Shown here in pieces: positions 20,236 through 50,655 of a DNA stretch of 64,000 nucleotides. The stretch lies in the NCBI GenBank assembly GCA_022530585.1, contig CP092821.1:134222-198221 (forward strand), written 5' to 3'. Made by a program: the position numbers and the translations under genes. Each line of letters opens with the position of its first letter. Positions within the stretch are counted from its first letter, which is position 1. Source of the DNA: Candidatus Nealsonbacteria bacterium DGGOD1a. GTDB taxonomy: Bacteria; Patescibacteriota; Minisyncoccia; Minisyncoccales; UBA5738. Under the pieces are notes generated by a model that was not told the DNA's origin, did no database searches, and saw only the letters and a list, made by a program, of their open reading frames with translations.

Positions 20236-20307
20236 GCCCCTATAGCTTAATGGATAAAGCTACTGCCTTCTAAGCCGTAGATGCAGGTCCGATTCCTGCT
20301 AGGGGCA
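20236..20307 (+). tRNA. tRNA-Arg (anticodon TCT)
   Basis: Manual cloverleaf: acceptor GCCCCTA/TAGGGGC, D arm GCTT/AAGC, anticodon loop CTTCTAA, T arm GCAGG-TCCGATT-CCTGC; 72 nt, no encoded CCA. Confidence 0.85.
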
Positions 20308-20396
20308 CTGATTAAAAATTTTCAAATGAATACAAGATATGAGGCGGGCTGGATTTTTTGATTAAAATAAGGTATTATCGTTTTGTAAAGTTTTAT

Positions 20397-20470: not shown

Positions 20471-20550
20471 CTGCTAGAATTTGAAGCTAAAATTTAATAC
20501 CCTCTACGGGAAATCCGAACCGCTTAACATTTGTTGAGCTTTTTGGTTTG
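20471..20550 (+). repeat. tRNA-His 3'-flank unit, copy U1 (repeated at 28901 and 30349)
   Basis: CTGCTAGAATTTGAAGCTAAAATTTAATACCCTCTACGGGAAATCCGAACC...; followed by TTGACA(20559)-16 nt-TAGTAT(20581). Confidence 0.6.
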
Positions 20551-20653
20551 GCAGCGAGTTGACAGAAATCTGTTTTCGTATAGTATTTTAGGGTAAGATC
20601 GTGAGCACATCTGCTCATAAAAAATAAGGTCGGATTATTAAGGAGAGGATACA

Positions 20654-21127
20654 GTGATACTGGATAAGAGTTTAATCCAAAAAGCGATTGAATTGGTAAC
20701 GCCTGGTGCCGTTGCCATATTGAACAGCGAGGGGACTACATGGGGACCAAAGTTTGCTCATGGGTATGTATACGCAGAAGAATCTGGAGCCGGAGATGTT
20801 GAATTCCATTTCGGCGACATAACTGTTCCATGGGATTCAAAATGGGGCGAGCAAAAAGATTTTGCTTATGTTGCATGGAGAAAGCTCAACGCCGCATGGC
20901 GCGAGAAGAAATCAACAAGTGAGGTTGTTGCCCTTGATCCTTGGCGACTGCGAGAAAAGGAATTTCTCTATTCCGGAGGGGCATACAGATATGGAATTGC
21001 AGTAGGTGTATCAGGGGCCTTGGGTAGAACCGATGAAGCTCTGGCCGAGATGGTTCTTTCTGCGATCATTATGTTAGCAAGGATTGAGGCCGATAAGAGA
21101 ATGGCTGAGCATAGGATGGAAATATAA
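20654..21127 (+). CDS. Hypothetical protein, possibly GlcG/DUF336-like
   Basis: GTG start with strong SD AAGGAGAGG; C-terminal GIAVGVSGALGRTDEALAEMV resembles the DUF336 GAIGVSG..D motif (weak). Confidence 0.5.
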   Translation: MILDKSLIQKAIELVTPGAVAILNSEGTTWGPKFAHGYVYAEESGAGDVEFHFGDITVPWDSKWGEQKDFAYVAWRKLNAAWREKKSTSEVVALDPWRLREKEFLYSGGAYRYGIAVGVSGALGRTDEALAEMVLSAIIMLARIEADKRMAEHRMEI

Positions 21128-21196
21128 AGTTTCAATAAAGGGCTTTGCCCGCTGGGGAATATCAACCTCAGTCTTTTTTTACTCACGCTGCTGTAG

Positions 21197-21231
21197 TCAA
21201 ATAGGTTCGAACATCGTATGCCAGACGACCC
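21197..21231 (+). repeat. Cassette-boundary motif copy 1 of 5 (core CGAACATCG-N-W-TGCCAGAYGACC)
   Basis: TCAAATAGGTTCGAACATCGTATGCCAGACGACCC. Confidence 0.7.
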
Positions 21232-21376
21232 AAGTTATTATATCGTCCCGTTGGAGGGCCGATTTTATCGAAATTATAACCAAAAGGATTATTTTCGGTT
21301 TTTAGTTAATTACGATTGTTGGTATTTACAAAAAATATAAATTGTGGTAAATTAATACTACACTAATTCCAAAAAA

Positions 21377-21754
21377 ATGTTCAAAAATCTTAAAAAGTTT
21401 GGTCAACATTTGAAGGAGTTGCGAACCGAAAAGGGGCTAGGATTAAGGGAGTTTTGCAAAATAGTTGATTACGACCCAAGCAATTGGAGCAAAATTGAAA
21501 GAGGTATAATTGCTCCTCCGGCAGATGAAGAAATTTTGAGAAAGTGGGCGAAAGTATTGGGTATTTCGGGAAAGGAGGAGGCTTTGAGAGATTTTGTTGA
21601 CGAGGCAAGCATAGCCCAAGGTATAATTCCCGAAGATATCCTTTCAAAGGAAAATGCAGTTGAGTATTTGCCCGCTTTTTTCCGTACCGTTCGTAATGAA
21701 AAGCCGACGAAGGAAGATATTGACAATCTTATCAACACAATAAGAAATGCATAG
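21377..21754 (+). CDS. XRE-family HTH transcriptional regulator
   Basis: LKELRTEKGLGLREFCKIVDYDPSNWSKIERG. Confidence 0.8.
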   Translation: MFKNLKKFGQHLKELRTEKGLGLREFCKIVDYDPSNWSKIERGIIAPPADEEILRKWAKVLGISGKEEALRDFVDEASIAQGIIPEDILSKENAVEYLPAFFRTVRNEKPTKEDIDNLINTIRNA

Positions 21755-21817
21755 AGAAGGCTATGAAAAATACCGGTTGAAAAATTCAGGCAGAAAGTAT
21801 GGGACGATACCATTCCG

Positions 21818-22336
21818 GTGGATATTGAGAGGATTGTTGAATTTGGCTTAAAAATAGACATAATACCTACGCCTGGATTGGCGAGATTGTCCAACGCGGA
21901 CGCGCTCATCACTTCCAATTGGGAAGCGGTTTATATTGATAATGCGAAATATATGGACGAGCGTTATCAAAGCCGGATTCGTTTTTCTTTGGCCCACGAA
22001 ATAGGGCATTTTATTTTACACAAGAAGCTTTACGGAACTTTCGGGATAAACGATATTACAGATTTTTATAAATTTTTTGAGCAAATTTCGACAATTCAAT
22101 ACGGATATTTGGAATCACAGGCAAATAAATTCGCCAATCTCTTATTAATACCTCGCGGCAAATTATCGCAAGAAAGGAATAGTTTTTTGCGGGACTTGGA
22201 GGCGATGGGGAATATGCCATCAATTGAAGATGAAAATGTGTTTAATTCATATTTAGCTATTCCTATGGCCAAAGTTTTCGGGGTATCAGAGAAAGTGGCA
22301 GAAATAGCGTTGGGCAATATAAGGGGAGAAAAGTAG
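21818..22336 (+). CDS. ImmA/IrrE-family metallopeptidase
   Basis: HEXXH LAHEIGHFILH; GTG start is the first start codon after the upstream in-frame stop (21764-21766); paired with upstream XRE gene. Confidence 0.75.
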   Translation: MDIERIVEFGLKIDIIPTPGLARLSNADALITSNWEAVYIDNAKYMDERYQSRIRFSLAHEIGHFILHKKLYGTFGINDITDFYKFFEQISTIQYGYLESQANKFANLLLIPRGKLSQERNSFLRDLEAMGNMPSIEDENVFNSYLAIPMAKVFGVSEKVAEIALGNIRGEK

Positions 22337-22534
22337 AAAATAGGGTAAATGGGAAAGCGCCGTGAAATCAATAAGCTTTGATTTTTAATAAATATCTAAG
22401 AACTTGGACAAATAAAGGGGAATTTACAATAATTCCTTTACCGCGGCGATTTTGTAGCGCAAATCTTCCATATATGCCTCGTCTTGGAGGATTTTGATTA
22501 CTTCGGTTATTAGAGCGGATGGTTCCTGACCCTG

Positions 22535-22936
22535 CTAAAAATTAAGTTCAAATTTGATATGCTGTTTTGTCGTTATCCATTCTTCGGGTTTGGCTTTGAG
22601 CTTGATTTTAAAAAATTTGATTTGGAAAAGCAAAATCATAAAAAATTGTTCGCCCTCGAATAGACCTATTCTTTCGCCCAATGCTTGGAAATTGTCGGTG
22701 ATAAAATACCGCCAGCTACTTTCTTTGGAAATTTTGGGATTGAGATAAATTCGATTGTTTTCCGTGTCCGCTATTCCTAAAAGTTTCTTTTTAGCTTTCC
22801 ACCTAACCAACGGACATTTCCCGCGCCTAAAATAAGGGTTCGCGAATTTTTGCAATAATCTGATTTTTGGTTTCATATTTTGTTGTTGTCCCGTTATGTA
22901 TTTTTCCCATTTTATACTTTTTTTATAAATTAACAA
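22535..22936 (-). CDS. Hypothetical protein (TAG stop followed by in-frame 36-codon conserved segment 22424-22534)
   Basis: 133-aa ORF, no recognisable intact motif. Confidence 0.4.
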   Translation of the reverse strand: MLIYKKSIKWEKYITGQQQNMKPKIRLLQKFANPYFRRGKCPLVRWKAKKKLLGIADTENNRIYLNPKISKESSWRYFITDNFQALGERIGLFEGEQFFMILLFQIKFFKIKLKAKPEEWITTKQHIKFELNF

Positions 22937-23039
22937 AAATCAATAAATATAGAAGTCAAACTTGATAACAGGTAAAATTGAAGTTGACTTTTAAGCGTAA
23001 TGTTATATTTTGATTATTAGCAATTTAGAGGTGATTTCT

Positions 23040-23270
23040 GTGGCATTTGAAGTTAAAGAAGGCGAAAGTTTTGCAGATGCTCTTAAAAGAGAAGTCCGCA
23101 ACGGGGTGTTTGTTGAGATATGTGATGTGCAAAGAATGTGGGCGCAACAAAAGAATATCGCGCGGCGATATTTGTGCCCGTTGCCAAGAAAAACTCGTAC
23201 GCAAAAAGAGAAGACAATAAATCTTCTCATTTTAATTTTTAATGATGAGCGATTGTCTGTTTTAAAATAA
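23040..23270 (+). CDS. Small hypothetical protein
   Basis: GTG 23040 preceded by GAGGTGA SD-like; no motif. Confidence 0.3.
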   Translation: MAFEVKEGESFADALKREVRNGVFVEICDVQRMWAQQKNIARRYLCPLPRKTRTQKEKTINLLILIFNDERLSVLK

Positions 23271-23313
23271 AAAAGACGATGGGCGAATTGATTTTATCTT
23301 CGCAACATCGACC

Positions 23314-23964
23314 TTATGCGTATTGTTCTATTGGGCTAAGGCAATTTGTTTTTGTAAATTCCAAATTTTGCAAATCAATTGCCAAATCCAGCATTTTTCT
23401 AAACTCTTGTAAATTCAATTTTCCTTTTATCCTTACCTCCATTTTTCTGCTTACGGCATTGTATATATGCACCTGCCAATCCTCAAACCCCGTAAGCCAG
23501 CAGTAGCATTGGGCTTGGAATGTTCCCGCTATTATTTGCCGTTCTTTGTTGCAAGGATAGCGGTAGGTTTTCAACTCCAAGGCTTCACCGGTATCAATGT
23601 TTAACTTGTCGGGCTGTCCCACAACTTTAATTCTTTGCCCGATATTCTTGCAATAATAATACCGGGGGAATATTTCATCCTGCTCGTATCCCAGGAGCCT
23701 GTGCAGTTCGTTTCCGTTCGGGATTGAACTTTCCGGCCTCCAAGTGGTGTTTAGCCACCAAGTTTCATCTCCGTTAAAGAACAACAGCTTTGTCGCTTCT
23801 CCCGCGGTTATTTTCCTTTCATTCGGCGCAATGTTTTCAACGCATATCCGTATTTTGCTTTTGATGACACCACACCCTTTTTGCCCGCTTATTTTTAGTG
23901 GCTTGTCGAATTTTAAATTTGTAAGCCACTGTATAATGGTGGCATAAATCGAACAATAAGGCAA
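23314..23964 (-). CDS. PD-(D/E)XK nuclease-like (RecB/Cas4-like core motifs)
   Basis: 216 aa; GQPDKL ... EALELKT (D..ExK) followed by QAQCYCW (QxxxY). Confidence 0.45.
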   Translation of the reverse strand: MPYCSIYATIIQWLTNLKFDKPLKISGQKGCGVIKSKIRICVENIAPNERKITAGEATKLLFFNGDETWWLNTTWRPESSIPNGNELHRLLGYEQDEIFPRYYYCKNIGQRIKVVGQPDKLNIDTGEALELKTYRYPCNKERQIIAGTFQAQCYCWLTGFEDWQVHIYNAVSRKMEVRIKGKLNLQEFRKMLDLAIDLQNLEFTKTNCLSPIEQYA

Positions 23965-24123
23965 TTAAGTTTTTTTAAAAGGAATTAAGCTATATTGCGG
24001 CCAATTTTAGCTCGTTGATTGCCTTGATTTTGAACATTAGGCTTTCAATATAATTTCGGTCTTCCAGTATCTTCATTAACTGCGTTATAATACCATTTGG
24101 TACGCGACCCCATTTGCCCGTTA

Positions 24124-24357
24124 TTATAACTTGCTTGTTTTCAAGCAAAGTTTGAAATAAAAGGGTAGGAGTAGCTTTAATGATTTTTTGGTAGCGATAC
24201 CGCCGGCTTGTTTGAATATCGCCAGCGATAATACTTGGATGATCGGCAATGCCAATTTTCGACCGGTTTTGTTTGTGAGCTTGTCAATTTTTAATTGTTG
24301 TGAAAAAATACTTACCACCTTCCTGATTTCGTTGTAAAATGGAATTACAACTTTCAT
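24124..24357 (-). CDS. Short hypothetical ORF, possibly a gene remnant
   Basis: 77 aa; double stop; a homolog of the 22424-22534 segment follows in another frame (23990-24123). Confidence 0.3.
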   Translation of the reverse strand: MKVVIPFYNEIRKVVSIFSQQLKIDKLTNKTGRKLALPIIQVLSLAIFKQAGGIATKKSLKLLLPFYFKLCLKTSKL

Positions 24358-24441
24358 GTTGGTGTTGAGTCGGCGATTTACCGGTCGCCGGCTCTGGTGT
24401 CATTTTAGCATTTTTTAGGAGTTTCGTAATTCAAAGAAATT

Positions 24442-24684
24442 ATGAAGAAGATTTTAATCGTTTTATTTTTATTGGTTGGTTTACACTTAATATACTTAAT
24501 ATGGTATTTTGGGGGCTATTTGATTCCAGATAGGGCCGATTGCAGTTTGTATAATTACGAGAGGTGCCCTGTTGGTTGCGAAGCGAGTTGTCATAGTAGC
24601 TGTAAAGCGTGTCTGGATAAAATTTGCGATTGTTCTTCCGGGACCGATGTTAGCATATTCCATTATTTTGGGTGGGGTGAATAA
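24442..24684 (+). CDS. Small membrane-anchored Cys-rich protein
   Basis: 80 aa; TM then CSLYNYERCPVGCEASCHSSCKACLDKICDC; GTTTCGTAATTCAAAG box 5 nt upstream of ATG. Confidence 0.5.
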   Translation: MKKILIVLFLLVGLHLIYLIWYFGGYLIPDRADCSLYNYERCPVGCEASCHSSCKACLDKICDCSSGTDVSIFHYFGWGE

Positions 24685-24789
24685 TTAAGTGTTATGCACA
24701 GATTTTATCCTTTGAGAGATGATATTCAGAGTTGGTGCCATCTTTCTTAAAAGTCAAGGCGGTATGGATATTCTAATTTTTTAAAAAGT

Positions 24790-25182
24790 ATGCAAAACAA
24801 AATCAATAAATTTGTTTATTGGGCGCCGCGAATATTATCAATACTGTTTATATTGTTTTTGGCGATGTTTTCGCTGGATGTTTTTGAAGAGGGCAGGAGC
24901 TGGCAGGAAATCGCCATTGCGTTATTTATGCACAATGTTCCGGTGTTGGCTTTGCTGGCGGTATTGATTATTTCCTGGAAGCGTGAAATCGTGGGCGGCG
25001 TTGCGTTTATCTTGGCGGGCATATTGTATATTGCGATGGTAGCGGCGGGTGTTTTGAAAAATGGGTTTGAGTGGTATATGGTTTCGTGGTTTTTAACAAT
25101 TTCGGGGCCGGCGTTTTTGATTGGCGGTTTATTTTTGGTTGCTTGGCATAGAAAGAAGGATAAAACTATCAAAAAATCTTAA
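24790..25182 (+). CDS. Integral membrane protein (4 predicted TM)
   Basis: 130 aa, four hydrophobic stretches. Confidence 0.6.
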   Translation: MQNKINKFVYWAPRILSILFILFLAMFSLDVFEEGRSWQEIAIALFMHNVPVLALLAVLIISWKREIVGGVAFILAGILYIAMVAAGVLKNGFEWYMVSWFLTISGPAFLIGGLFLVAWHRKKDKTIKKS

Positions 25183-25279
25183 CGGTGAAAATTGCAATAT
25201 AAATTCTCATATTATAAGTTTCGCCGCGAAGTTATAATATGGGATTTGACTACACATTGATAATGTGTATAATTGAGGT

Positions 25280-25543
25280 ATGGAAAATCAAAATAATTCT
25301 ACAACTTATCAGCGGGTTGACATTACCCTTCCGAAGGAAACAGTCAGATTGCTTGAAAAAATCGCCAAGCGAGGCGATAGGAGCCGGTTGGTTGACCAGG
25401 CGATTCGTTATTTTGCCAAGGAAATGAGCCGAACTAATTTGAAAAAGCAGTTGAAAGATGGTGCGATAGTTAACGCTTCGCGAGATTTGAATTTGGTTGA
25501 AGAGTGGTTTTCAATCGATAATGAAGTATGCCCAAGCAAATAA
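25280..25543 (+). CDS. Ribbon-helix-helix (CopG/MazE-like) antitoxin
   Basis: YQRVDITLPKETVRLLEKIAKRGDRSRLVDQAIRYF; 16-nt overlap with mazF. Confidence 0.75.
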   Translation: MENQNNSTTYQRVDITLPKETVRLLEKIAKRGDRSRLVDQAIRYFAKEMSRTNLKKQLKDGAIVNASRDLNLVEEWFSIDNEVCPSK

Positions 25544-25890
25544 TTCCAAAACGAGGCGAGGTTTATTTGGTTAATTTTGACCCAACCATCGGTTCGGAAA
25601 TCAGAAAAACGAGGCCGGCTTTGATTATTCAAAATGATATTGCCAATCGTTATAGCCCGATAACGATTGTCGCGGCGATAACTTTGCAAGTTGGGGAGCG
25701 GATTTATCCAACCGAGGTGTTGATAGAGTTCGGGCGGAGTGATTTAGGCAAGCGGTGCGTGGTTTTGTTGAATCAAGTACGGGCGATTGATAAACAACGA
25801 TTAGTTAAAAGATTGGCGGTTTTTGATTCGGTTTTGATGGAAAAGATAAATCAGGCGTTGGAGATTAGCTTGGGATTAGTGGATTTATAA
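25528..25890 (+). CDS. mazF: MazF/PemK-family endoribonuclease toxin
   Basis: PKRGEVYLVNFDPTIGSEIRKTRPALIIQND. Confidence 0.85.
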   Translation: MPKQIIPKRGEVYLVNFDPTIGSEIRKTRPALIIQNDIANRYSPITIVAAITLQVGERIYPTEVLIEFGRSDLGKRCVVLLNQVRAIDKQRLVKRLAVFDSVLMEKINQALEISLGLVDL

Positions 25891-25921
25891 ACAGAAAGAG
25901 AGGGTTGAATTACCTCTCTAA

Positions 25922-26506
25922 TTATTGTTGCATAAACCAGGGCATCCCTACTCTTGCACTTGTTGCGTCCTCAAGGCCATTTCCGTCATCAAAAATTTCC
26001 TTTAATGTTAGTGGGAAATCTCTGATTAGTGGGAGGGGGCCGAGAAGATTTGTGAGCGAGAAGAACATTTCAGTTGTTTCCTCGTCAACTTTTACGGGAA
26101 GTCCAAGATTGTGTGCGTAGCTTGCCAGTTTGTTGACGCAATCCCATTGATGGAACCCTCCAAGAATTATCTCGGTTATATTTGAGATTTGGCCAAAGAT
26201 AGATTCCGGGTTAGGGTATTTGCGATGTTGGGTATGTTCTTTGAAGGATAATCCTGCCGAAATTATGGTGTCTTCCGGCTCTATTGTTATCCAACTGGCG
26301 AGCAAATCTTTGTCCGGTTTGTTCGGCGCGTTTTCTTGACCGAATAAAAGCCAGACTATTTTGTATTTTTTCTTACGATACCGTGCGCGAATGATGTCGT
26401 TTAATCTGCGCACATCATATTTGCCGTTTCTGAATTGATAAAAATTACCTATCTCATTTTCAAAGAACGGCTTAATTGGATAGAGGAATAAGAAAACCTT
26501 CATCAA
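25922..26506 (-). CDS. Hypothetical protein, weak isochorismatase/cysteine-hydrolase-like pattern
   Basis: 194 aa; IILGGFHQWDCVNKLASYAHNLGLPVKVDEE resembles the G..td.CV..Ta motif. Confidence 0.4.
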   Translation of the reverse strand: MMKVFLFLYPIKPFFENEIGNFYQFRNGKYDVRRLNDIIRARYRKKKYKIVWLLFGQENAPNKPDKDLLASWITIEPEDTIISAGLSFKEHTQHRKYPNPESIFGQISNITEIILGGFHQWDCVNKLASYAHNLGLPVKVDEETTEMFFSLTNLLGPLPLIRDFPLTLKEIFDDGNGLEDATSARVGMPWFMQQ

Positions 26507-26556
26507 ATTACCTCAATGGCATATTACACCATAATCATTCAAAATCAAGAATTGAT

Positions 26557-26590
26557 GAAGCAGGTGCGAACATCGATTGCCAGACGACCA
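26557..26590 (+). repeat. Cassette-boundary motif copy 2 of 5
   Basis: GAAGCAGGTGCGAACATCGATTGCCAGACGACCA. Confidence 0.7.
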
Positions 26591-26702
26591 AGCTTCAAAA
26601 AGTCGCTCAGCGGGCGGTTTTTTGGCTGGATGGGCGTAGGCGGGGTTTAGAAAAACCAGAGTTGACACCATTTTCACGACACCATTTTTCGTGCGCCAAA
26701 CC

Positions 26703-28170
26703 TGTCAAATACAAGTAGAAATGTCATACCCGGAATTTAAGTAGAAATGTCATACTTGACTTTTGTAGAATTAGTATTGTTATTTCCGGAAAAATATTTT
26801 AACAATTGATTTTTGCGATTTCAGCGGCGATTTGTTTGCGCCAAGGATGATCCGCCGGTGGCTTGGAGATGATTCTTTTTGCCGGTATGGCGGCAATCAA
26901 TTCTTTGGCTTTCAACGGCTTGGCCGGCAGGATTTTGAAGTTTAAATATTTATCCCGCAGACGGATCGCCAGCGATCCGTCGAGCCGCTCTTCCATCAAA
27001 ATTTCATCCTTGCGGCGCACGGTGGCGATCTGCTCTTTGGCGATCTGTATCCATTGGTTTTTGAACCTTATCGTGAAATCATTCTGTACCCGCCTTTGCG
27101 ATTGGACGGAAAATATCGCGTCAAGATTTGAACTTTGAAAATCGGGCAGCTGCCGGTGCAGATCGTTTTTCTTTTTGGGAATCACCGAAAATCTTTGATT
27201 GAAATCCGGAATGAATTCTTCTTTTAAGAATTTGCTGGCCGCGGCGATATCGCTGATGCCGCGCAATCGCAATTCCTTGACCAGCCGGTCCTGCAAAGTG
27301 TCAAAGAGCCGTTCGATTCGGCCTTTGGCTTGCGGGCTGTTGGCGGTGATCAGGGTTATATCCAGTTCCCGGGCGGCTCTCTGAAACTGGGTGATCATTT
27401 CGCTGTTGTCTTTTGCATTTTTGTGATTGATCTTATATGTACTGAATTTATCCAGGTAGATGGCTATCGGTTTGCCTGATTCTTGGAGGTAGCCTTTCCA
27501 GAATTGAAACACATTGATGACGCTTTCGCTATCCGTGAATTCCGCCCGGGTGATCCGGCCGGTGGCATCGTCGACGGAGGCCAACAAACAAGATTCATCG
27601 CCGCGTTTCTCAAACCAGAAGTGGTAACAGCCGTCGAATTGTTCCAGCTCGCCCGGCGATTCTTTGCGTTCTCTTTGGCAGCGGAATTCCTGGTTTTGTT
27701 TTCTTGGTTTGGGCATCCAAATCTTTTTTGCGATCATTAAATTGCGCGTGGTCTGCTTGCCAATTTTTATTCCTTCAACCTCAACCAGTTTTTCATGCGC
27801 CAAGGTCGGGCCGAAATCAGGATACTTTTCTGAAATTATTTGTCCGGATTTTTCCCAGATTTTAAGATCGGTCTTATTGTTGCTTTGCTTGCCTCGCAAG
27901 CCGTGAATGATCCCATTGGCGCCTTTCTCCCGCACTTTGTTGCGCAATCGCTTTACCTGCCTTACCGACCGCCCCAGCTGCTTGGCCGCATCGCCCGGAG
28001 TGATTTCTTTGGCGATCAATTTTCTTATTACTTCATACCTGTCCAGCTCTTTTTGCGTCATCTTGAATAATTCTTTTTCCATATTGGTGGGTTATGTTTT
28101 ATCCACCAATCATACCAGGTATGACATTTCTACTTGGACGCAAGTATGACATTACTACTTTTAAATGACA
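26703..28170 (-). mobile_element. Insertion sequence, ISNCY/IS1202-group-like, with 15-bp direct duplication
   Basis: ~27-bp imperfect terminal IRs starting TGTCA (23/27 match). Each end holds two copies of AAGTAGAAATGTCATAC (26713, 26739; inverted at 28119, 28144). Flanked by TTCGTGCGCCAAACC at 26688-26702 and 28171-28185. Confidence 0.75.
26799..28082 (-). CDS. DDE (rve-type) transposase, ISNCY/IS1202-like
   Basis: 427 aa; N-terminal HTH MTQKELDRYEVIRKL..AAKQLGRSVRQVKRL..GLRGKQSNNK; catalytic region DD..D..SPQAKGRIERLFDTLQDRLVKELRL. Confidence 0.85.
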   Translation of the reverse strand: MEKELFKMTQKELDRYEVIRKLIAKEITPGDAAKQLGRSVRQVKRLRNKVREKGANGIIHGLRGKQSNNKTDLKIWEKSGQIISEKYPDFGPTLAHEKLVEVEGIKIGKQTTRNLMIAKKIWMPKPRKQNQEFRCQRERKESPGELEQFDGCYHFWFEKRGDESCLLASVDDATGRITRAEFTDSESVINVFQFWKGYLQESGKPIAIYLDKFSTYKINHKNAKDNSEMITQFQRAARELDITLITANSPQAKGRIERLFDTLQDRLVKELRLRGISDIAAASKFLKEEFIPDFNQRFSVIPKKKNDLHRQLPDFQSSNLDAIFSVQSQRRVQNDFTIRFKNQWIQIAKEQIATVRRKDEILMEERLDGSLAIRLRDKYLNFKILPAKPLKAKELIAAIPAKRIISKPPADHPWRKQIAAEIAKINC

Positions 28171-28267
28171 TTCGTGCGCCAAACCTTGACAGAATGAGCC
28201 AAAAACTGGTATCTTTTAACTATCAACGCCCCGGCCAGCCGTAAGGTCCGCCGGGGTTTTCCTAAAC

Positions 28268-28870
28268 ATGGAAAGCATATTATTTGTCGATGGCCGCAAT
28301 TTTATCAATAAGATTGAAGTTGTTTTGCGCGAAAATAAAATCAAGAGCATTGATTATTCTTTGTATAATTTTGGCGGGTTGATGGATAAAGTTTTGACGG
28401 GAATAAGAGTTGACCGCCGATTGTTCTATTTTGGAAAACTGGTCAAACATTCGGAAACTTTGGAGAAATCAGCCAAACTTATCGAAAACCAAAGAAAACT
28501 AAAAACCAGCTTGGAAAAGCAAGGTTTTGAAATTGTCATTGCCGGCAGGATTCGCGGCCATTTGGAAAAATGCCAAAAGGGACATGAAATGTTGGTTTTT
28601 AAGGAAAAGGGCGTGGATGTGAAACTTGCGGTTGATATGGTTACGTTGGCTTGCAATAATAAACTGAAAACAGCCATTGTTGGCAGTTCGGATTCTGATT
28701 TGCAGCCGGCAATCAGTGAATTAAAAACGCACGGTGTTGAAAGAATCTATCTTGGCTTTGAAACGGCTCCCAACAAGGGGCTAACATTTACCACCAACAG
28801 AACGATCCTTATTAGAAATTCCGAGGTTTTGGAATTTTTACCAAAAACCTTATTCTCAAAAGATAGTTAA
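28268..28870 (+). CDS. NYN-domain (LabA-like) predicted RNase
   Basis: ILFVDGRNF ... GVDVKLAVDM ... IVGSSDSDLQPAI. Confidence 0.75.
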   Translation: MESILFVDGRNFINKIEVVLRENKIKSIDYSLYNFGGLMDKVLTGIRVDRRLFYFGKLVKHSETLEKSAKLIENQRKLKTSLEKQGFEIVIAGRIRGHLEKCQKGHEMLVFKEKGVDVKLAVDMVTLACNNKLKTAIVGSSDSDLQPAISELKTHGVERIYLGFETAPNKGLTFTTNRTILIRNSEVLEFLPKTLFSKDS

Positions 28871-28901
28871 ACAGGCTCGAACATCGTTTGCCAGACGACC
28901 C
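28867..28901 (+). repeat. Cassette-boundary motif copy 3 of 5
   Basis: TTAAACAGGCTCGAACATCGTTTGCCAGACGACCC, starts inside the NYN stop codon region. Confidence 0.7.
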
Positions 28902-28985
28902 TGCCAGAATTTGAAGCTGAAATCGACTTACCCTCTACGGGGAATCCGAACCCGCGAACATGCGTTGAGCGGTTTTGGGTATAGT
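28901..28985 (+). repeat. tRNA-His 3'-flank unit, copy U2
   Basis: CTGCCAGAATTTGAAGCTGAAATCGACTTACCCTCTACGGGGAATCCGAACCC... about 80 percent identical to U1 by eye; followed by TTGACA at 28999. Confidence 0.6.
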
Positions 28986-29061
28986 TGGTGTGCTTTGCTT
29001 GACATAATGTATACTAAAGTGTTATATAGTATATATCTTAATGATCTAAGCATACTAACTT

Positions 29062-30192
29062 ATGAAAATAGAGATAGGCAAGCTCCAAGGACAAAAAGAA
29101 GGATTTTCTGCCTTCGTTCCTTCTCAGTTTCCGCCAGAAGGTATTTTTGATTTAACCGCGTCCACTCTCATTAAGACTTCAGAGGCGGCGCGGTTAGTTG
29201 GAAAATTGGACGGTATTACTCATACGCTTCCCGATTTGGAGTATTTTCTAACGATGTTTGTTAAAAAAGACGCGGCATCGTCGGCGCAAATCGAGGGAAC
29301 AAGAGCGACAATGATCGACGCCATTGAAAAAGCCGCTGGCGTGGCGACTTCGGAAACTGACGCCGATGACATTTTGTTTTACATTAAAGCTCTCGATTAC
29401 GGAGTCGTGCGACTGAAGGAATTTCCGCTTTCGCTAAGATTGATAAGAGAAATCCACGCCCAATTGATGACTGGCGCCCGCGCAAGCCATTTTGCCGATC
29501 CGGGAGAATTCAGAAAATCACCGAACTGGATCGGTGGAACAACCCCATCGAATGCGTTATTCGTTCCGCCGCCAGTCGAAGAAATGCATCGGGCGCTCAA
29601 CGATTTTGAAAAATTCCTTCATAACGAAAAATCAACTTTGCCGCTGGTCCATATTGCCATCGCGCACGGGCAATTCGAAACTATCCATCCTTTTTTGGAT
29701 GGAAACGGAAGGACGGGCCGGTTACTGATTACTATGTTGTTGTGCCATAGAAATTTGCTGGAGCGGCCAGTGCTTTTCCTCTCCTCCTATTTCAAAAAGC
29801 ACCAAAAAATTTATTATCAGAAGCTTCATGGTTACCATTACGGCGAAGTTGAAGAATGGATAAATTTTTTTCTGGACGGAGTGATTGAAACCGCTAACGA
29901 ATCAATTGCCATATCAAAGTTGATAACCAAAATTCGTGGAAACGACTTAGAGAAAATACAATCGCTGGCCAAAAGAGAATCGGAGAGCGGAGTCAAGGTT
30001 CTTCGGAAATTATACGCGCAACCGATAGTGGCTTCGAAAACGATTATGGACTGGACCGGGTTTACCAGGGCGGGTGCACAGAAGCTGATCGACCGATTTG
30101 TGAAAATCGGAATTTTGGAATTAAAGGAAAACAAAACTGGCTACGACCGTTCCTATATTTATCGCGAATACACAGATGCGTTTTCGGCTTAG
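29062..30192 (+). CDS. Fic-family protein (AMPylase-type, canonical motif)
   Basis: HPFLDGNGRTGRLL; Fic_N-like N-terminus and C-terminal winged-helix region. Confidence 0.9.
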   Translation: MKIEIGKLQGQKEGFSAFVPSQFPPEGIFDLTASTLIKTSEAARLVGKLDGITHTLPDLEYFLTMFVKKDAASSAQIEGTRATMIDAIEKAAGVATSETDADDILFYIKALDYGVVRLKEFPLSLRLIREIHAQLMTGARASHFADPGEFRKSPNWIGGTTPSNALFVPPPVEEMHRALNDFEKFLHNEKSTLPLVHIAIAHGQFETIHPFLDGNGRTGRLLITMLLCHRNLLERPVLFLSSYFKKHQKIYYQKLHGYHYGEVEEWINFFLDGVIETANESIAISKLITKIRGNDLEKIQSLAKRESESGVKVLRKLYAQPIVASKTIMDWTGFTRAGAQKLIDRFVKIGILELKENKTGYDRSYIYREYTDAFSA

Positions 30193-30259
30193 GGAAATAA
30201 ATGGCGGGTTAAGGGGCGGGGTAATCGTTAAAGCGAATTTGACGCTGTATAATATTCCG

Positions 30260-30294
30260 TCAAACAGGCGCGAACATCGGTTGCCAGATGACCC
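30260..30294 (+). repeat. Cassette-boundary motif copy 4 of 5
   Basis: TCAAACAGGCGCGAACATCGGTTGCCAGATGACCCC. Confidence 0.7.
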
Positions 30295-30348
30295 CTTCTA
30301 CGCTAAAGCTTCGAAGGGCAAGCTCTTCGACAAGTTCAGGCCTGCGGT

Positions 30349-30420
30349 CTGCCAATTTTGAAACTAAAATTTGCTATCCTCTGCGGCAAATCCGCGCTGA
30401 TTTTAAGCTAGTTGTTTTGT
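30349..30420 (+). repeat. tRNA-His 3'-flank unit, copy U3 (more diverged)
   Basis: CTGCCAATTTTGAAACTAAAATTTGCTATCCTCTGCGGCAAATCCGCGC... Confidence 0.5.
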
Positions 30421-30431
30421 TGCAGTTAGTT

Positions 30432-30482
30432 GCCTTAATCGTATCAAAATGATACGATTAAGGCATATAAATGATACGATTA
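30432..30482 (+). promoter_or_regulatory. Candidate operator: perfect 14-bp-arm palindrome plus a third half-site over the Fic-like gene start
   Basis: GCCTTAATCGTATC-AAAAT-GATACGATTAAGGC, then GATACGATTA again at 30473-30482. Confidence 0.55.
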
Positions 30483-31540
30483 TGCAACAATTATCCCAAA
30501 AACAGCAAAAAATCCTTTCGATTTTGGTAAAAAATGGCAAGATGTCGTCTTCAGCTATTCGCGAGGCGTTGCTCAAAGCAAAAGAAAATGTGGCACTGAT
30601 TACTGTTAAAAGAGCGTTATCGGAAATGGTTGATGCCGGGGTTATAATTGAGGCCGGCGGGGGAAGATCAACCGTTTATGGAATTGGTATTCCCGGCAGG
30701 GTATTTTTTGATATTGATGCAAGGGATTATTGCGCCGTTGAACCGGATTGGCGTTATGGGTTGAGCCGCTATAATTTTGATTTGTTTGCAAAGATGCCCA
30801 CGGAAGTATTTTATGACGAAGAAAGGGCAAGGCTTGAGGCGGCGACAAAAACCTACAAACAAAGATCGCAAAATGTTACACCGGTAACGCAAAAAAAAGA
30901 ATTGGAGCGGCTGATAATTGAGCTATCGTGGAAATCTTCAAAAATAGAGGGCAACACTTACACATTGTTGGAAACCGAAAAACTTATTTTGGAAAATAAA
31001 AAGGCAGTTGGCCGCAGCGAAAACGAAACCCAGATGATATTGAACCATAAAGACGCTTTTGATTTTGTTCGCCAAAACCAGCAGGAATTCAAAAAAATAA
31101 GCCGCGCCAATCTTGAAAAACTCCACTCGATTTTAGTGAAAGATATGGAGGTCGGTTTTGGTTTGCGCAAGGCGCCGGTTGGGATCACGGGCACCAAATA
31201 CCAGCCGCTTGATAATATTTACCAGGTCGAAGAAGCGGTTAAGACGCTTTCCGCGGCGGCGGATAGAATGGAGAATATTTTTGCAAAGTCATTGCTGGCG
31301 GTTTTGGGCATAAGCTATGTTCAGCCGTTTGAAGACGGCAACAAGCGCACCGGCCGCTTAATGGCCAATGCATTGCTTTTATCCCACAGTCTGGCGCCGC
31401 TTTCGTATCGCAGCGTCGACGAAACGGATTACCGCCAGGCAACAATAGTATTTTACGAACTCAATTCGATGATACCTTTCAAAGAGATTTTTATCGGACA
31501 ATGCGAATTTGCGGCCAATAATTACGCGCTTGGATTATAA
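30482..31540 (+). CDS. wHTH + Fic-fold protein with degenerate active-site motif
   Basis: QPFEDGNKRTGRLMANALL in place of HxFx(D/E)GNGRxxR; N-terminal ILSILVKNGKMSSSAIREAL..ITVKRALSEMV; ATG 30482 preferred to 30449, which lies inside the palindrome. Confidence 0.75.
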   Translation: MQQLSQKQQKILSILVKNGKMSSSAIREALLKAKENVALITVKRALSEMVDAGVIIEAGGGRSTVYGIGIPGRVFFDIDARDYCAVEPDWRYGLSRYNFDLFAKMPTEVFYDEERARLEAATKTYKQRSQNVTPVTQKKELERLIIELSWKSSKIEGNTYTLLETEKLILENKKAVGRSENETQMILNHKDAFDFVRQNQQEFKKISRANLEKLHSILVKDMEVGFGLRKAPVGITGTKYQPLDNIYQVEEAVKTLSAAADRMENIFAKSLLAVLGISYVQPFEDGNKRTGRLMANALLLSHSLAPLSYRSVDETDYRQATIVFYELNSMIPFKEIFIGQCEFAANNYALGL

Positions 31541-31574
31541 GAACAAATGCGAACATCGTATGCCAGACGACCCC
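31541..31574 (+). repeat. Cassette-boundary motif copy 5 of 5
   Basis: GAACAAATGCGAACATCGTATGCCAGACGACCCC, 1 nt after the Fic-like stop. Confidence 0.7.
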
Positions 31575-31595
31575 GGTAGGGGATGATTTTGTGTC

Positions 31596-31695
31596 ATTGG
31601 AAAAAAATTGCTAATTGGCGGTTTTTAATTTGGTTTTGATGGAAAAAGTAAATCAAGCTTTATAAATGAACTTGGGGTCGGTGGTTGATTTATAA
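31596..31695 (+). pseudogene. Remnant of a second mazF/pemK 3' end
   Basis: Translates NLAVFNLVLMEKVNQAL*MNLGSVVDL* versus RLAVFDSVLMEKINQALEISLGLVDL* at 25811-25890. Confidence 0.55.
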
Positions 31696-31719: not shown

Positions 31720-32493
31720 ATGGCTAAAGAGAATAAATTAATAAATGAATCCAACTTAAGATTGATTTGCGAATTGCATTTGGGGTTGGAGCGGCAGGGG
31801 CCGGGCAGTCCTGAAATGACTATCAAGGCATTGAGCTTTGTGGATAATCTTGATAAAAATTCGCGGGTGGCGGATTTGGGTTGCGGAACCGGCGGGCAGA
31901 CGATGGTTTTGGCGCAAAATATTGACGGGAATATCACCGGCGTGGATTTTTTCCCCGGTTTTATAGATATTTTTAACGACAATGCCAAAAAATTAAATCT
32001 TCAAGGAAGGGTGAAGGGGATTGTCGGTTCAATGGAGAATCTTTCTTTTCAAAAAGAAGAATTTGACTTGATATGGTCGGAAGGGGCGATTGCCGGGATT
32101 GGTTTTGAGAAAGGGTTAAATTATTGGAGGGATTTTCTAAAAAAAGACGGCTATGTTGCTTTAACTTACGAGTCGTGGTTTACCGATGAACGCCCGGCGG
32201 AAATTGAAAAGTGGTGGGTTGATAATGTTCCTGAAATAAGCACGATAGGAAATAATATTTCAATAATGCAAAAATCGGGATATATTCCTGTTGCCGCATT
32301 TATATTGCCCGAAAATTGCTGGACGGACAATTATTTTGTCCCGCGGGAAGCGGCGGGAAAAGCGCTTTTGGAAAAATACGCCGGGAACAAAACTGTGGAA
32401 GATTTTATCGCAAATATGAGATACGAAGCGGAATTGTATTCAAAATACAAGCAGTATTACGGATATGTTTTTTATATCGGGAAAAAGATTTAA
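31720..32493 (+). CDS. Class I SAM-dependent methyltransferase
   Basis: Motif I VADLGCGTGGQTMVLA; 257 aa. Confidence 0.8.
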   Translation: MAKENKLINESNLRLICELHLGLERQGPGSPEMTIKALSFVDNLDKNSRVADLGCGTGGQTMVLAQNIDGNITGVDFFPGFIDIFNDNAKKLNLQGRVKGIVGSMENLSFQKEEFDLIWSEGAIAGIGFEKGLNYWRDFLKKDGYVALTYESWFTDERPAEIEKWWVDNVPEISTIGNNISIMQKSGYIPVAAFILPENCWTDNYFVPREAAGKALLEKYAGNKTVEDFIANMRYEAELYSKYKQYYGYVFYIGKKI

Positions 32494-32702: not shown

Positions 32703-33191
32703 ATGGAAAAAAAGATATTCGCGGTTGTTTTATTTTCGTTTTCCTTGTTTACATTTTCGCCGTTGGCGGCGAACGCGGCGTGTTCGCAGGTGGCGGGGAA
32801 AACATATTATAGCGATAGCGTGAGTTACTTTAAGGATTCGGCGTGCCACCAAGAAATGAGTGCGGCCGATGTCGAGGCGGCGGGCGTTGGTTATATTTCC
32901 ACGGGAAGCGCGAATTGCAAATATAATATTTCAAAAAAACAATATACCGACGGCACTTCTTTTTTTCTCAATAATAAATGTACCGATGAAGCCGCGCCGG
33001 GAGAAACCGCGGCCGCGCCCACGACTCAAACCGTGACTGCCCAAACCCAAACCCAAACGCAAGCGCAGGTTGCGGTCGCTGACGCGACTCAATACGCGCA
33101 AATGAACCAGAGGATCGCGGCGCTTGAAAATCAAGTAAAAATTTTAATGCAAATTATCACGCAGGTCTTGGCGCTGTTGGCGAATAGATAA
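32703..33191 (+). CDS. Secreted protein with Thr/Gln-rich linker and C-terminal coiled-coil tail
   Basis: Signal peptide ending LAANA|A; ends QRIAALENQVKILMQIITQVLALLANR. Confidence 0.6.
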   Translation: MEKKIFAVVLFSFSLFTFSPLAANAACSQVAGKTYYSDSVSYFKDSACHQEMSAADVEAAGVGYISTGSANCKYNISKKQYTDGTSFFLNNKCTDEAAPGETAAAPTTQTVTAQTQTQTQAQVAVADATQYAQMNQRIAALENQVKILMQIITQVLALLANR

Positions 33192-33267
33192 AAGGGAAGC
33201 ATTGCGCTTGTTTTATGCGCGAGTTGCCCGACGGCGTGTATATTTTTGATTAAGTTCTTGTTATAAT

Positions 33268-33427
33268 GGGTCTGTCGCCGAATTGGCTTCAACCGCGATT
33301 TCCATTTTTCGGCTGCAAAGAATTCATCATTCGTCGCCGGATTTAGCTTAAATATGCCTCCTCATTCTTCATTCTTTTCGCTCGAAAACTGAAAATTTCG
33401 TTCTGAAGCTAATTCGGCGACAGACCC
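33268..33427. mobile_element. 160-bp MITE-like element, family B, copy 1
   Basis: TIRs GGGTCTGTCGCCGAATTGGCTTCA / TGAAGCTAATTCGGCGACAGACCC; flanked by ATAAT on both sides. Confidence 0.65.
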
Positions 33428-33505
33428 ATAATGAACGCGGGAGGGCGCCGCATCAAAATCGGCGGTTGCGATTTTGCCGGTTTGCCGTAACAAAATCAAA
33501 TCAAT

Positions 33506-33898
33506 ATGAGCGAAACAAAAAAAGTTTTGGTCATTGACGACGAAATCGTTCTGCTTGATCTTTTGAGTTCAAAAATAAGCCAAAACGGTTTTTTCGTGAT
33601 CGAGGCGCATGACGGCGACGAGGGCTTGCAAAAAGCGCTGGCCGAACATCCCGATCTGGTGTTGCTGGATATTATAATGCCCAAGATGGATGGCATCACA
33701 ATGCTGAAGAAACTGCGAGAAGATCCTTGGGGAAAAACGGCACGGGTGATCATTCTTTCCAATTTGAATACCGCCGAGGCGGTGGAAAAATCTTTGGCCA
33801 ACGGCGCTTATGATTATTTGGTGAAGATCGACTACACGCTTGACGATTTGGTGAGGATTGTTAAAAAAAGGCTTGAAAAGAAAAGGGATTCCCGATGA
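33506..33898 (+). CDS. Single-domain response regulator (receiver)
   Basis: VIDDE, LVLLDIIMPKMDG, ILSN, YLVK. Confidence 0.85.
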   Translation: MSETKKVLVIDDEIVLLDLLSSKISQNGFFVIEAHDGDEGLQKALAEHPDLVLLDIIMPKMDGITMLKKLREDPWGKTARVIILSNLNTAEAVEKSLANGAYDYLVKIDYTLDDLVRIVKKRLEKKRDSR

Positions 33899-33907
33899 TC
33901 AATAAAT

Positions 33908-34105
33908 ATGGAAGAAGATATTCAAAAAAAGTTGGAAGATCAAGGCAAAAAACTCGACGATATTTACAATTCGGTCGAGAAAACGAGAAAATATTTCTTG
34001 TGGATACTTGTCGTAACCGCGGTTATGATAATTTTACCTTTGATCGGTTTGGCAATCGCGATCCCGCAATTTTTGGACGCATACGCCGCCGCGCTGAATT
34101 TTTAG
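33908..34105 (+). CDS. Small membrane protein
   Basis: 65 aa, charged N-terminus then one TM (FLWILVVTAVMIILPLIGLAIAI). Confidence 0.45.
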   Translation: MEEDIQKKLEDQGKKLDDIYNSVEKTRKYFLWILVVTAVMIILPLIGLAIAIPQFLDAYAAALNF

Positions 34106-34242
34106 CATCTTGCCAAGTCGGGATTTGACTTTCAGCCTTTTTTGCGGTTAAATAGAGCCGTGTTTGATTTTGATGTCGGAATTTATGATTTTTTGAAAAT
34201 TGGAAATTAGAAATTGAAAATTGTCCCGCCGCGGCGGGACTC

Positions 34243-34314
34243 GCGGGCGTCGTATAGTGGCTATTATGTGACCTTGCCAAGGTTAAGACGAGAGTTCGAT
34301 TCTCTTCGCCCGCT
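34243..34314 (+). tRNA. tRNA-Gly (anticodon GCC)
   Basis: Acceptor GCGGGCG/CGCCCGC, anticodon stem TGACC/GGTTA with loop TTGCCAA, T arm GAGAG-TTCGATT-CTCTT; 72 nt. Confidence 0.85.
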
Positions 34315-34359
34315 CAAATTTAAGAGCCGCTCTTGCAAGAGCGGCTCTTAAATTTGAGC
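34312..34359 (+). terminator. Intrinsic terminator after tRNA-Gly
   Basis: GCTCAAATTTAAGAGCCGCTCT-TGCA-AGAGCGGCTCTTAAATTTGAGC followed by GGTTTTTGTTTTT. Confidence 0.65.
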
Positions 34360-42472: not shown

Positions 42473-42491
42473 ATGTTTGAGATTCGCGATA

Positions 42492-42525
42492 AGGCCGGCC
42501 CCGGCGTATTTAACGGGGCCGGCCT
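42492..42525 (+). terminator. GC-rich hairpin between giant genes 1 and 2
   Basis: AGGCCGGCCCCG-GCGTATTTAA-CGGGGCCGGCCT; TATAAT at 42533-42538 just downstream; no T-run. Confidence 0.5.
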
Positions 42526-42560
42526 CCGAGTCGTATAATTTGAATTCATTAACAAAAATT

Positions 42561-45500: not shown

Positions 45501-45581
45501 ACCTTTTATGTGCGGTGCAAAAATGACGCGGGAAACGAGAATAATGTATCCAAGATCATACAATTCAGTATCTCGCGATAA
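42561..45581 (+). CDS. Giant secreted protein (4 TSP1-like Cys repeats, 4 two-Cys repeats, DUF4082-like module)
   Basis: ATG 42561 (MPLSLFSINQKSILALLLGGLIALTAGAALA signal) preferred to 42477, which spans the hairpin; GSGSGSGSGSG linker; repeats listed in findings. Confidence 0.8.
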   Translation: MPLSLFSINQKSILALLLGGLIALTAGAALAADLVWMPDWIENNDLNFGGFSNFIDAAAGAGLTEDETRAMIVALINSKFGEEDFLTVLRESNASAAGKLAALATADPTFQQLLDGIDMYAKTSEGKNDLKKIQDQLANNTTGNTTGNTESKAQAIKDYQAKIDTGTATEKDKEAYIAALKASGDTIVTDPLTGKSWAYSSYDPSDPKNEKGKNVIDTAAQFSLDTGYDPCLDGFMVGGGDEGGGSGSGSGSGSGNASVVCNTYIYNDWGACAGGTQSRTIFSKGPSGCTDTSSAQLTQSCAVSCTSYTYSDWSACSNGSQSRTIKTQSPAGCTNTSSADLTNDCTGNDGTACTSYTYSDWSACSNGSQSRTIKTQSPAGCTNTSSADLAQSCTVQTAVCASYTYSDWSACVNGGQTRSMISRVPAECTDTSSAIFTQSCGVAQPPIVANTTNAVQISSNPVLSVTTNQAAVCQYAEAGGFSYGNGATFNTTGGYNHNTGLNNVNSGQHTFYVICKDNATGGISTVLKIDFNVDLSLDPASAPVIVSATPAKQTGSNPVLSITTDRPAACQYKKDAVFAYGAGVSISTTDNYSHSVSISSLADGSYNFYAVCKDKTTGAVSAAKQISTAIDRSGNNPAAPALVNNTDTYQTVNNPILAVSTDKAAVCQYGSGSFTYGAGIQFATDGGTSHSVQLSNIANGQHTYYVICKDAATGAVSNAGYQIIFTVDVLDGDNCADLSSNDRKSDSNRSNSGGGNANSSYLWQSVETGTRERFSDVDWYAGYQFTPEKDGRITQLCGYFDSGATNKVSIYNGSYAEIASAQVAGNDSWKCVDISPLEIDADSRYYVIARVQNNPIYFEYKSGMLPRQSGDAIIEAGVRQTIIDQKFKTDVVKYDYMIFGLVDVKISYDPASNSGPAISSVGPVGTIDGSSATISAQTDRQSSCKFDREDVVYSSMKYAFSNSSAGNFSQKVCGLESGNYTFYVRCKNDAGNENNVSKIIQFSISR

Positions 45582-45637
45582 CTGATTCGTGTTTCGTTCG
45601 CGATCCGGCCAACCCGCGTTCGCGCGTTTCAACCGAA

Positions 45638-50637: not shown

Positions 50638-50655
50638 TCATAAATAACCAAAATT

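Follow-up and report, generated by a model that had tools for sequence, protein, structure and literature searches.

Integrons, including sedentary chromosomal ones, have an attI site next to the integrase gene intI and carry arrays of cassettes ending in attC, a site that is a folded hairpin. Cis-mobilizable elements (CIMEs) and the accretion products of Streptococcus are integrase-less units bounded by att sites, which stem from identifiable integrative and conjugative elements or integrative and mobilizable elements with a known integrase. Xer-dependent modules (integrative mobile elements exploiting Xer, IMEX; the pdif modules of Acinetobacter) depend on 28-bp dif-type dyads with two 11-bp arms, on which the Xer proteins of the host act. 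The minimal mobile elements of Neisseria exchange cassettes by transformation and by homology of the flanking core genes. Tycheposons of Prochlorococcus represent successive tRNA-proximal integrations, with repeats that duplicate parts of the island tRNA, and with tyrosine integrases and replication modules (bioRxiv 10.1101/2020.12.28.424599). Here, we describe a cassette array next to tRNA-His in Candidatus Nealsonbacteria bacterium DGGOD1a (contig CP092821.1). The window, that is, the whole stretch of DNA that was analysed, covers 64,000 nt (contig positions 134,222 to 198,221), and all unlabelled coordinates refer to it. Its low-GC island from 20.5 to ~32.6 kb is a five-cassette array that starts at tRNA-His(GTG) (20398-20470/71, + strand). 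Two repeated sequences, termed U and boundary motif (BM), mark its junctions: every cassette of the island terminates in BM, and three of the five open with U.

The first junction has the 3' end of tRNA-His (..CACC-C) as its left side, and U1 (20471-20550) starts at the base that follows the tRNA. Two more copies, U2 (28901-28985) and U3 (30349-30420), are located within the island, all three on the + strand. The preliminary description of this locus had proposed that these sequences are related and that U1 directly follows the tRNA gene. Both statements are borne out, with a gapped identity of 79% for U1/U2, 72% for U1/U3, and 62% for U2/U3, and with alignments that score better than those of shuffled sequences (z 12.7, 9.2, and 6.5, respectively). 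The pattern CCTCTRCGGNRAATCCG has three matches in the window (0.13 expected by chance) and the pattern TGCYAGAATTTGAAGCTRAAAT has two (0.00 expected). For independent detection, nhmmer profiles of U and BM were built solely from copies in other genomes. The U profile found U1 (E-value 5e-18), U2 (7e-13), and the degenerate copy U3 (8e-10, matched over 30352-30402) and nothing else in the 64 kb.

BM has a length of 32 nt (AAACAGGTKCGAACATCGNWTGCCAGAYGACC). The five copies in the window are all encoded on the + strand: BM1 (21199-21230, E-value 2e-11), BM2 (26558-26589, 8e-12), BM3 (28869-28900, 5e-13), BM4 (30262-30293, 2e-11), and BM5 (31541-31572, 9e-9), the last being the final junction motif of the array. 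All five differ from one another, which fits the arrival of each copy with its own cassette and not homogenisation in place. When 20 kb of flanking sequence were added beyond the window, no further copy of U or BM was found therein. U2 and U3 are located behind BM3 and BM4, as had been described, except that the insert between BM4 and U3 comprises 55 nt (30294-30348) rather than 54 nt. BM3 and BM5 adjoin the stop codons of the preceding cassette genes.

A search for BM in a set with one genome per species returned 19 matches. Seven of them were set aside as chance matches, being lone, inside high-GC coding sequence, and devoid of the AAACAGG part. The other 12 are loci in metagenome-assembled genomes (MAGs) of Patescibacteria type, several of which have two to five copies, all on the same strand. 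Labels from outside the candidate phyla radiation (CPR) are attached to four of these MAGs, which mis-binning may explain. A metagenome search with the U pattern added 11 loci. At least 20 Patescibacteria-type contigs contain BM/U arrays, with all copies of a contig on one strand. Related loci are referred to by L numbers below. U and BM were not found among the viral contigs of IMG/VR, the phages of INPHARED, or the plasmids of PLSDB. Contigs that carry further homologues of the 157-aa protein from cassette 1 were searched for additional arrays and yielded neither BM nor U.

The position of the array is conserved. In five distinct genomes (the window, L001, L012/L026, L020, and L022/L024), the upstream genes are pilM, pilN, pilO, a 108-aa open reading frame (ORF), tRNA-Arg, and tRNA-His, and the anchor proteins share 37-60% amino acid sequence identity. 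In the window, tRNA-Arg(TCT) is encoded at 20236-20308 (+ strand), and the pair of tRNA-Arg and tRNA-His also precedes the arrays of L001, L012/L026, L020, and L024. In each of the five distinct genomes, the array starts where an intact tRNA gene ends: U directly follows tRNA-His, and the gene behind U is a different one each time. Two observations concern the surroundings of related arrays. In L020, the closest relative, tRNA-Arg and tRNA-His are ~700 nt apart, compared to 90 nt in the window, and a Cys/His-rich 159-aa ORF, which by eye resembles an HNH endonuclease, lies between them (3991-4470). In L021, a LOOT RNA (7260-7388; Rfam RF03000, 84.9 bits) is located a few kb upstream of a junction between U and BM', a variant of BM described below.

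Within arrays, 43 non-redundant junctions were compared. BM is directly followed by U in 11 of them and by an insert and then U in four more, with U variants or a truncated U in about another four. Overall, U accompanies only ~40% of the BM junctions. The remaining BM junctions open with other left ends, either a plain terminator ("b") or a sequence starting with ATAGTTGATGAG ("c"). BM is found in 41 distinct left contexts, with an abrupt onset of conservation at the first base of the motif (AAACAGG). No conserved promoter was found upstream of BM, and a T-rich terminator tail was found there in only about half of the copies.

Pairs of junctions reveal that cassettes have been shuffled between genomes. 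Nine pairs share the left side and differ on the right; 12 pairs share the right side and differ on the left. Identity switches at the 3' end of BM or within TTTGAAGCTAAA, a part of U. Junctions L009+1197 and L015+5408, which are on the same contig, are identical through ...GACGACC|C and unrelated beyond it. The left sides of L007-3170 and L015+5408 are unrelated, and 98% sequence identity sets in at the first base after BM. Identity extends through CTGCCAAGTTTTGAAGCTAAA for L011-2732 and L023-322, which then diverge, and starts at TTTGAAGC for L009+357 and L015+4568.

Cassettes of the window recur elsewhere, with other positions or neighbours. The unit composed of BM, insert, U, and a gene for a helix-turn-helix (HTH)-Fic protein is 72% identical at the nucleotide level in L012/L026, where it is the third unit of the array as compared to the fifth in the window; matches to HTH-Fic elsewhere range from 72% to 81%, and in L005 this gene is found without BM or U. 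The NYN part of cassette 3 shows 81% nucleotide sequence identity to L016, and the mazEF part of cassette 2 shows 84-86% to L029, L009, and L027, with the same range for the methyltransferase gene in L029. The protein from cassette 1 has homologues with 55% amino acid sequence identity behind U in L009, L015, L022, and L027. The tandem integrations suggested by the preliminary description hold to the extent that U constitutes half of a recombination junction in an array anchored at tRNA-His, with different cassettes at the same junctions in relatives. The accompanying idea of a duplicated att flank does not hold for a simple copy of the host flank: U follows the separate 32-nt BM in many genomes, the tRNA is not duplicated, and at least seven assemblies of the same strain show no junction variant.

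Several junctions deviate in their details. Hairpin-prone inserts of 32-125 nt (CCTTCYRYAG...GAAGG type) are located exactly between BM and U in the window (30294-30348; homologous to the insert at the same position in L012/L026, ~5130-5070 in L012), in L006, and in L011; in L016, such an insert (5585-5625) is found inside the last bases of BM. A variant of the left-half motif, termed BM' (AATAGTTCGAACGTCCTCTACTGTGGCACC), is as long as BM, has a different middle, and ends in GGCACC; it precedes U in L021 (~9880), L028 (~860), and L011, and its CCTCTAC box is the same as a box inside U. BM flanks of the "b" type (L009 2335-2385, L005 2771-2812, L012 6191-6150, and L029 1564-1612) end in CTTTTTGGTATAAT, GGTAGGAT, or GGTAAGAT, which represent the T-run of a terminator fused to an extended -10-like box. 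This box is only 7-12 nt ahead of the ATG of a Nudix gene in L005, L009, and L029, which suggests that these genes may give rise to leaderless transcripts; in L012, the gene is a different one and its ATG is further away.

The conserved part of U is composed of three pieces. The first, CTGCYARAAT, is variable. The second, TTTGAAGCTAAA(A)TT, is nearly invariant; together with GCYARAATT ahead of it, it makes up a direct repeat of 9 nt, arranged as GCYARAATT-TGAA-GCTAAAATT. The third, (T)ACCCTCTRYGGGAAATCCGAAC, follows after a spacer of variable length. At the BM|U2 junction, TGCCAGA occurs twice at a distance of ~13 nt, spanning the junction. In most copies, U is closed by a hairpin and a subsequent T-run (TTTTTGGTTT). 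In U1, the conserved part (20471-20527, CTGCTAGAATTTGAAGCTAAAATT..ACCCTCTACGGGAAATCCGAAC) leads into a hairpin (20522-20539), which was also flagged by a terminator scan, and a T-run (20540-20549); in U2, the corresponding positions are 28901-28952, 28952-28972, and 28973-28976. An automated check for hairpin and T-run was passed by 14 of the 22 distinct U copies, several of the others having been clipped by the script. The hairpins vary in sequence from copy to copy. The 3' part of U is predicted from its sequence to have the shape of an intrinsic (rho-independent) terminator.

This arrangement speaks against U as a portable promoter module, the other option raised in the preliminary description, since the TTGACA boxes that had been noted are beyond the terminator-shaped end of U and in non-homologous sequence. 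The sequences after U1, U2, and U3 cannot be aligned with each other (z -0.5 to 2.2). The box at 20559 is part of a sigma-70-like promoter (20559-20586, + strand; 16-nt spacer, TAGTAT) that lies outside of the conserved U and ahead of cassette 1. The second box is present as well (28999-29004), but the -10 element assigned to it fails the criteria of the scan. Promoter-like sites are not enriched in the region (33 compared to 30.7 in shuffled sequences). In other genomes, a promoter-like site follows most U copies, beyond the T-run and at a variable distance. The promoter is a property of each cassette and not of U, and U looks like a terminator that insulates the cassette promoter from upstream sequence.

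BM plus U has no stable overall fold on either DNA strand (z -0.84 to +0.99 compared to shuffled sequences). For the conserved 55 nt of U, RNAalifold applied to 18 copies predicted three pairs with 0 compensatory changes. Neither U nor BM has a match in Rfam, where only the tRNAs reach threshold; they were accordingly rejected as a known RNA. U is thus conserved as a primary sequence, which fits a DNA (or RNA) site that is recognised by a protein better than a structured RNA.

Direct observations comprise the repeats with their sharp boundaries, the anchoring at tRNA-His, and the shuffling of cassettes at junctions among genomes. We infer from them, tentatively and as a call that falls just short of even, that U and BM together form an attachment site at which an unlinked recombinase serves a cassette platform anchored at tRNA-His. 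The site would have two parts, with the 3' end of tRNA-His or BM as the left half and U as the right half. A cassette would extend from just past one junction, often from U, via its own promoter and one or more genes to its terminal BM. A recombinase encoded elsewhere in the genome would act on a circular cassette with the site BM|U and insert it either at tRNA-His|U in the chromosome or at a further BM junction, which would leave a copy of U at both new junctions. Conjectural in this scheme are site-specific action of an enzyme, passage via a circular intermediate, and the precise point of crossover. U2 and U3 would then be junction scars or active sites within the array and not copies of a promoter, and the terminator-shaped hairpin of U would close the upstream unit, be it the tRNA operon or the gene of the cassette before, ahead of the promoter of the next cassette. 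A site-specific process is favoured by the tRNA anchor, by the strict single orientation, and by the direct-repeat substructure of the site. It is also favoured by the sharp edges and near-invariance of BM despite very divergent core genes, and by the fact that the BM copies of the window have not been homogenised. Conservation of the primary sequence without covariation or stable fold is as expected for a DNA site that is bound by a protein.

Several results weigh against an attachment site of this kind. About half of the BM junctions continue into left ends other than U. The breakpoints are not at one fixed base: some coincide with the 3' end of BM or lie within TTTGAAGCTAAA, one is located in the 5' part of BM (L005+854 compared to L009+1682), and one is in U, within its CCCTCTACGGG..CCGAAC stretch (comparison of L025/L029 with L009). 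Among ~70 ORFs of this and related arrays, searches with Pfam and NCBIfam detected no tyrosine or serine recombinase domain and only transposases of insertion sequences (IS), and the gene tables for 10 kb beyond each window end (~84 kb in all) also contain no recombinase. The one 427-aa HTH protein that was considered as recombinase of the island proved to be an ISNCY transposase in an ordinary IS with inverted repeats and target duplication. The resemblance of BM to the 3' end of tRNA-His is no better than that to tRNA-Arg. Alignment of BM with tRNA-His 3' ends gave scores of 4-16 (z -0.7 to 3.2), and a score of 16 (z 3.5) was obtained with tRNA-Arg of L001; the likeness, GGTTCGAA..GCCA..ACC, is unspecific, and BM was rejected as a partial tRNA-His copy. 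Tools for tRNA detection (ARAGORN, Rfam) found no tRNA fragments in the arrays. Finally, the junction variants that the preliminary description had anticipated exist among related genomes but were not seen in at least seven assemblies of the same strain, which carry an identical array with no empty site and no circular junction, so that the system may not be active at present. Contig ends at BM3 or at the IS in other assemblies of the strain are assembly breaks.

The same array might have arisen without a dedicated enzyme. RecA-type homologous recombination between the BM (32 nt) or U (55-80 nt) repeats could act on DNA taken up via the adjacent type IV pilus system, with the repeats being maintained for another role, such as termination or insulation. 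We regard this as the main, yet rather unlikely, alternative. It would readily account for breakpoints that are spread over ~100 nt of BM plus U and for the lack of a recombinase gene near any examined array, and all five genomes have a complete pil operon next to the array. Rearrangements away from junctions exist too, as illustrated by a 79-nt duplication of mazF and by the HTH-Fic gene that lacks BM and U in L005. However, the homology is very short for efficient exchange by RecA, and passive homology leaves unexplained the sharp edges of BM in 41 contexts and its near-invariance in genomes that share only 37-60% identity of their core proteins. Also, the BM copies within the present genome have not been homogenised, and strict restriction to a single strand together with anchoring at a tRNA is typical of site-specific systems.

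We consider it improbable that U, with or without BM, is simply a regulatory or RNA module, for example a 3' trailer of tRNA-His with a terminator or insulator role or a small RNA, which spread together with adjacent genes through ordinary duplication and horizontal transfer and for which the position at junctions is incidental. The terminator-shaped hairpin and T-run at the end of U agree with such a role, as does the location of U, which is found in the transcribed trailer of the tRNA operon and past the stop codons of cassette genes, and some U copies have a TGnTAnAAT-like extended -10 at CTGCTA(G/T/A)AAT. On the other side, the lack of compensatory pairs, a fold z of ~0, and the absence of an Rfam family speak against it, and a module of this kind leaves unexplained the switches of context exactly at BM and U, the 41 left contexts of BM, and the single orientation.

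It is very unlikely that the array is a classical integron or an integrase-less attC cluster (CALIN) in which BM plus U is attC. Co-oriented cassettes that each end in a repeated site, with toxin-antitoxin and defence-type cargo, are reminiscent of these systems, and about half of the U hairpins match the consensus of integron core sites, RYYYAAC-N4-GTTRRRY (e.g., GCTTAAC ATTT GTTGAGC at 20522-20539). The latter is probably a coincidence because the breakpoints do not map there, being off the GTTRRRY box. Neither IntI nor any tyrosine recombinase is encoded among the window ORFs, within 10 kb on either side, or in related arrays. The site does not form an attC-like imperfect hairpin on either strand (fold z ~0), has no complementary R''/R' pair across it, and BM is devoid of R''/L'' cores; an attC identity was rejected on these grounds. 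Moreover, the cassettes appear to bring their own promoters. Chance resemblance of A+T-rich intergenic DNA is practically negligible given z values of 6.5-12.7, independent-profile E-values of 8e-10 to 5e-18, the lack of matches in shuffled sequences, and the presence of the same sequence in many other genomes.

Three further identities were considered and rejected. A search of the consensus junction for a dif-like dyad yielded only AATTT-GAAGCTA-AAATT, a 5-bp AT-rich inverted repeat. U and BM, as cassette ends, are not inverted repeats of each other, as would be the ends of a transposon (IS or miniature inverted-repeat transposable element). BM is not a coding C-terminal tag: it follows stop codons, and its variable positions would be second codon positions.

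Cassette 1 carries a single gene (20654-21127, + strand) for a 157-aa protein without family assignment; a terminator-like hairpin (21151-21172) precedes BM1. Cassette 2 (21231-26557, 5.3 kb) is multigenic with genes on both strands and codes for an HTH protein (21377-21754), an M78 family peptidase (21818-22336), a DUF7670 protein (24790-25182), a MazE-like protein (25280-25543), and MazF (25528-25890), together with three family-unassigned genes on the - strand. Cassette 3 (26590-28868, + strand) has a terminator-shaped "b-type" left end (AAGCTTCAAAAAGTCGC..GCGGTTTTTTGG) and an NYN gene (28268-28870), at the stop codon of which BM3 begins. The gene of cassette 4 (29062-30192, + strand) codes for a Fic protein with Fic_N and Fic domains. 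Cassette 5 (30432-31540, + strand) contains a gene for a winged HTH (wHTH)-Fic protein (start at 30449 or 30482, end at 31540). Cassette sizes range from 0.8 to 5 kb.

The palindrome ahead of the wHTH-Fic gene, noted in the preliminary description, is real (30432-30464). It is perfect, with 15-bp arms (GCCTTAATCGTATCA-AAA-TGATACGATTAAGGC), and is located just upstream of the gene or overlaps its start; it is probably an operator for the N-terminal winged-helix domain of wHTH-Fic itself.

Cassette 3 is split by a complete ISNCY element (26704-28170), which disrupts the promoter region of the NYN cassette. Its 427-aa transposase is encoded on the - strand (NF033594, E-value 7e-116), its terminal inverted repeats of 25-27 nt include AAGTAGAAATGTCATAC boxes in doubled form, and the element is bordered by a target duplication of 16 bp (TTCGTGCGCCAAACCT; 26688-26703 and 28171-28186).

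Beyond BM5, the last 79 nt of mazF (25812-25890) are duplicated (31614-31692, + strand), and a methyltransferase gene follows (31720-32493, + strand). In L029, mazEF directly adjoins the methyltransferase gene, so that region 25891-31613, with its four BM junctions, represents an insertion into that block. This insertion did not result from an event at a BM/U junction. The conserved distal flank (32703-34315, + strand), which is shared with L026, consists of a 162-aa gene, a response regulator gene, a small ORF, and tRNA-Gly(GCC). Further downstream, the window contains four consecutive paralogous giant ORFs of up to 1647 aa (37529-52302), and a second pilM/pilO/T2SSE cluster begins near 61.5 kb.

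Patescibacteria have tiny genomes with few recognisable mobile elements and lack cultured genetics, yet show extensive gene exchange. BM plus U provides a conserved, easily searchable mark of a cassette array beside tRNA-His. It would offer a handle on the acquisition and shuffling of defence, toxin-antitoxin, and accessory genes, would help to delimit the flexible genome in MAGs, and would serve as a defined DNA substrate for finding the recombinase involved, potentially a new site-specific tool. If only homologous recombination is involved, the array would still be an unusual case in which dedicated non-coding linkers structure a cassette array. In the literature, we found no description of integrons or cassettes at tRNA-His in CPR bacteria, nor of the motif strings.

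Among the systems introduced at the outset, the minimal mobile elements of Neisseria also have different cassettes in the same place between conserved sequences and no element-encoded recombinase, but in the array described here the homology would be a dedicated non-coding repeat of 32 nt or 80 nt that is reiterated within the array. Xer-dependent modules are comparable in being small, in having short conserved sites, and in having their recombinase encoded elsewhere, which would explain the missing integrase; they differ in that BM and U have no dif dyad and all BM/U sites are in direct orientation. As in CIMEs, integrase-less tandem units are found at one chromosomal site and are potentially mobilised in trans or in cis. 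Unlike for CIMEs, neither a parent element nor an integrase was seen for BM/U, and both sequences are absent from the phage, plasmid, and viral collections searched.

The similarity to tycheposons comprises growth at the tRNA-proximal end, tandem elements that are separated by a repeated attachment motif, and streamlined genomes with few other mobile elements. In contrast to tycheposons, the BM/U repeat is not a tRNA fragment, and the cassettes have only 0.8-5 kb, none with an integrase. With integrons, the array shares a fixed entry point, co-oriented cassettes that mostly have one gene, a repeated site at the cassette end, toxin-antitoxin and accessory cargo, and variable cassette positions. 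It differs from them in being anchored at the 3' end of tRNA-His, with no integrase found, in having a site that is a primary sequence (32 nt plus ~55 nt) and not an attC hairpin, and in having cassettes that seem to carry their own promoters and terminators. It is conceivable, though we are more doubtful here than about the attachment site as such, that Patescibacteria possess an integron-like gene-capture platform of their own, in which BM-ended cassettes would be joined via U at a tRNA-His anchor by an unlinked recombinase, possibly of the Xer type of the host or a novel one, and the architecture of which would be unrelated to attC, dif, and partial-tRNA att sites. The BM/U junction follows a logic like that of integrons and tycheposons and has the defining features of neither.

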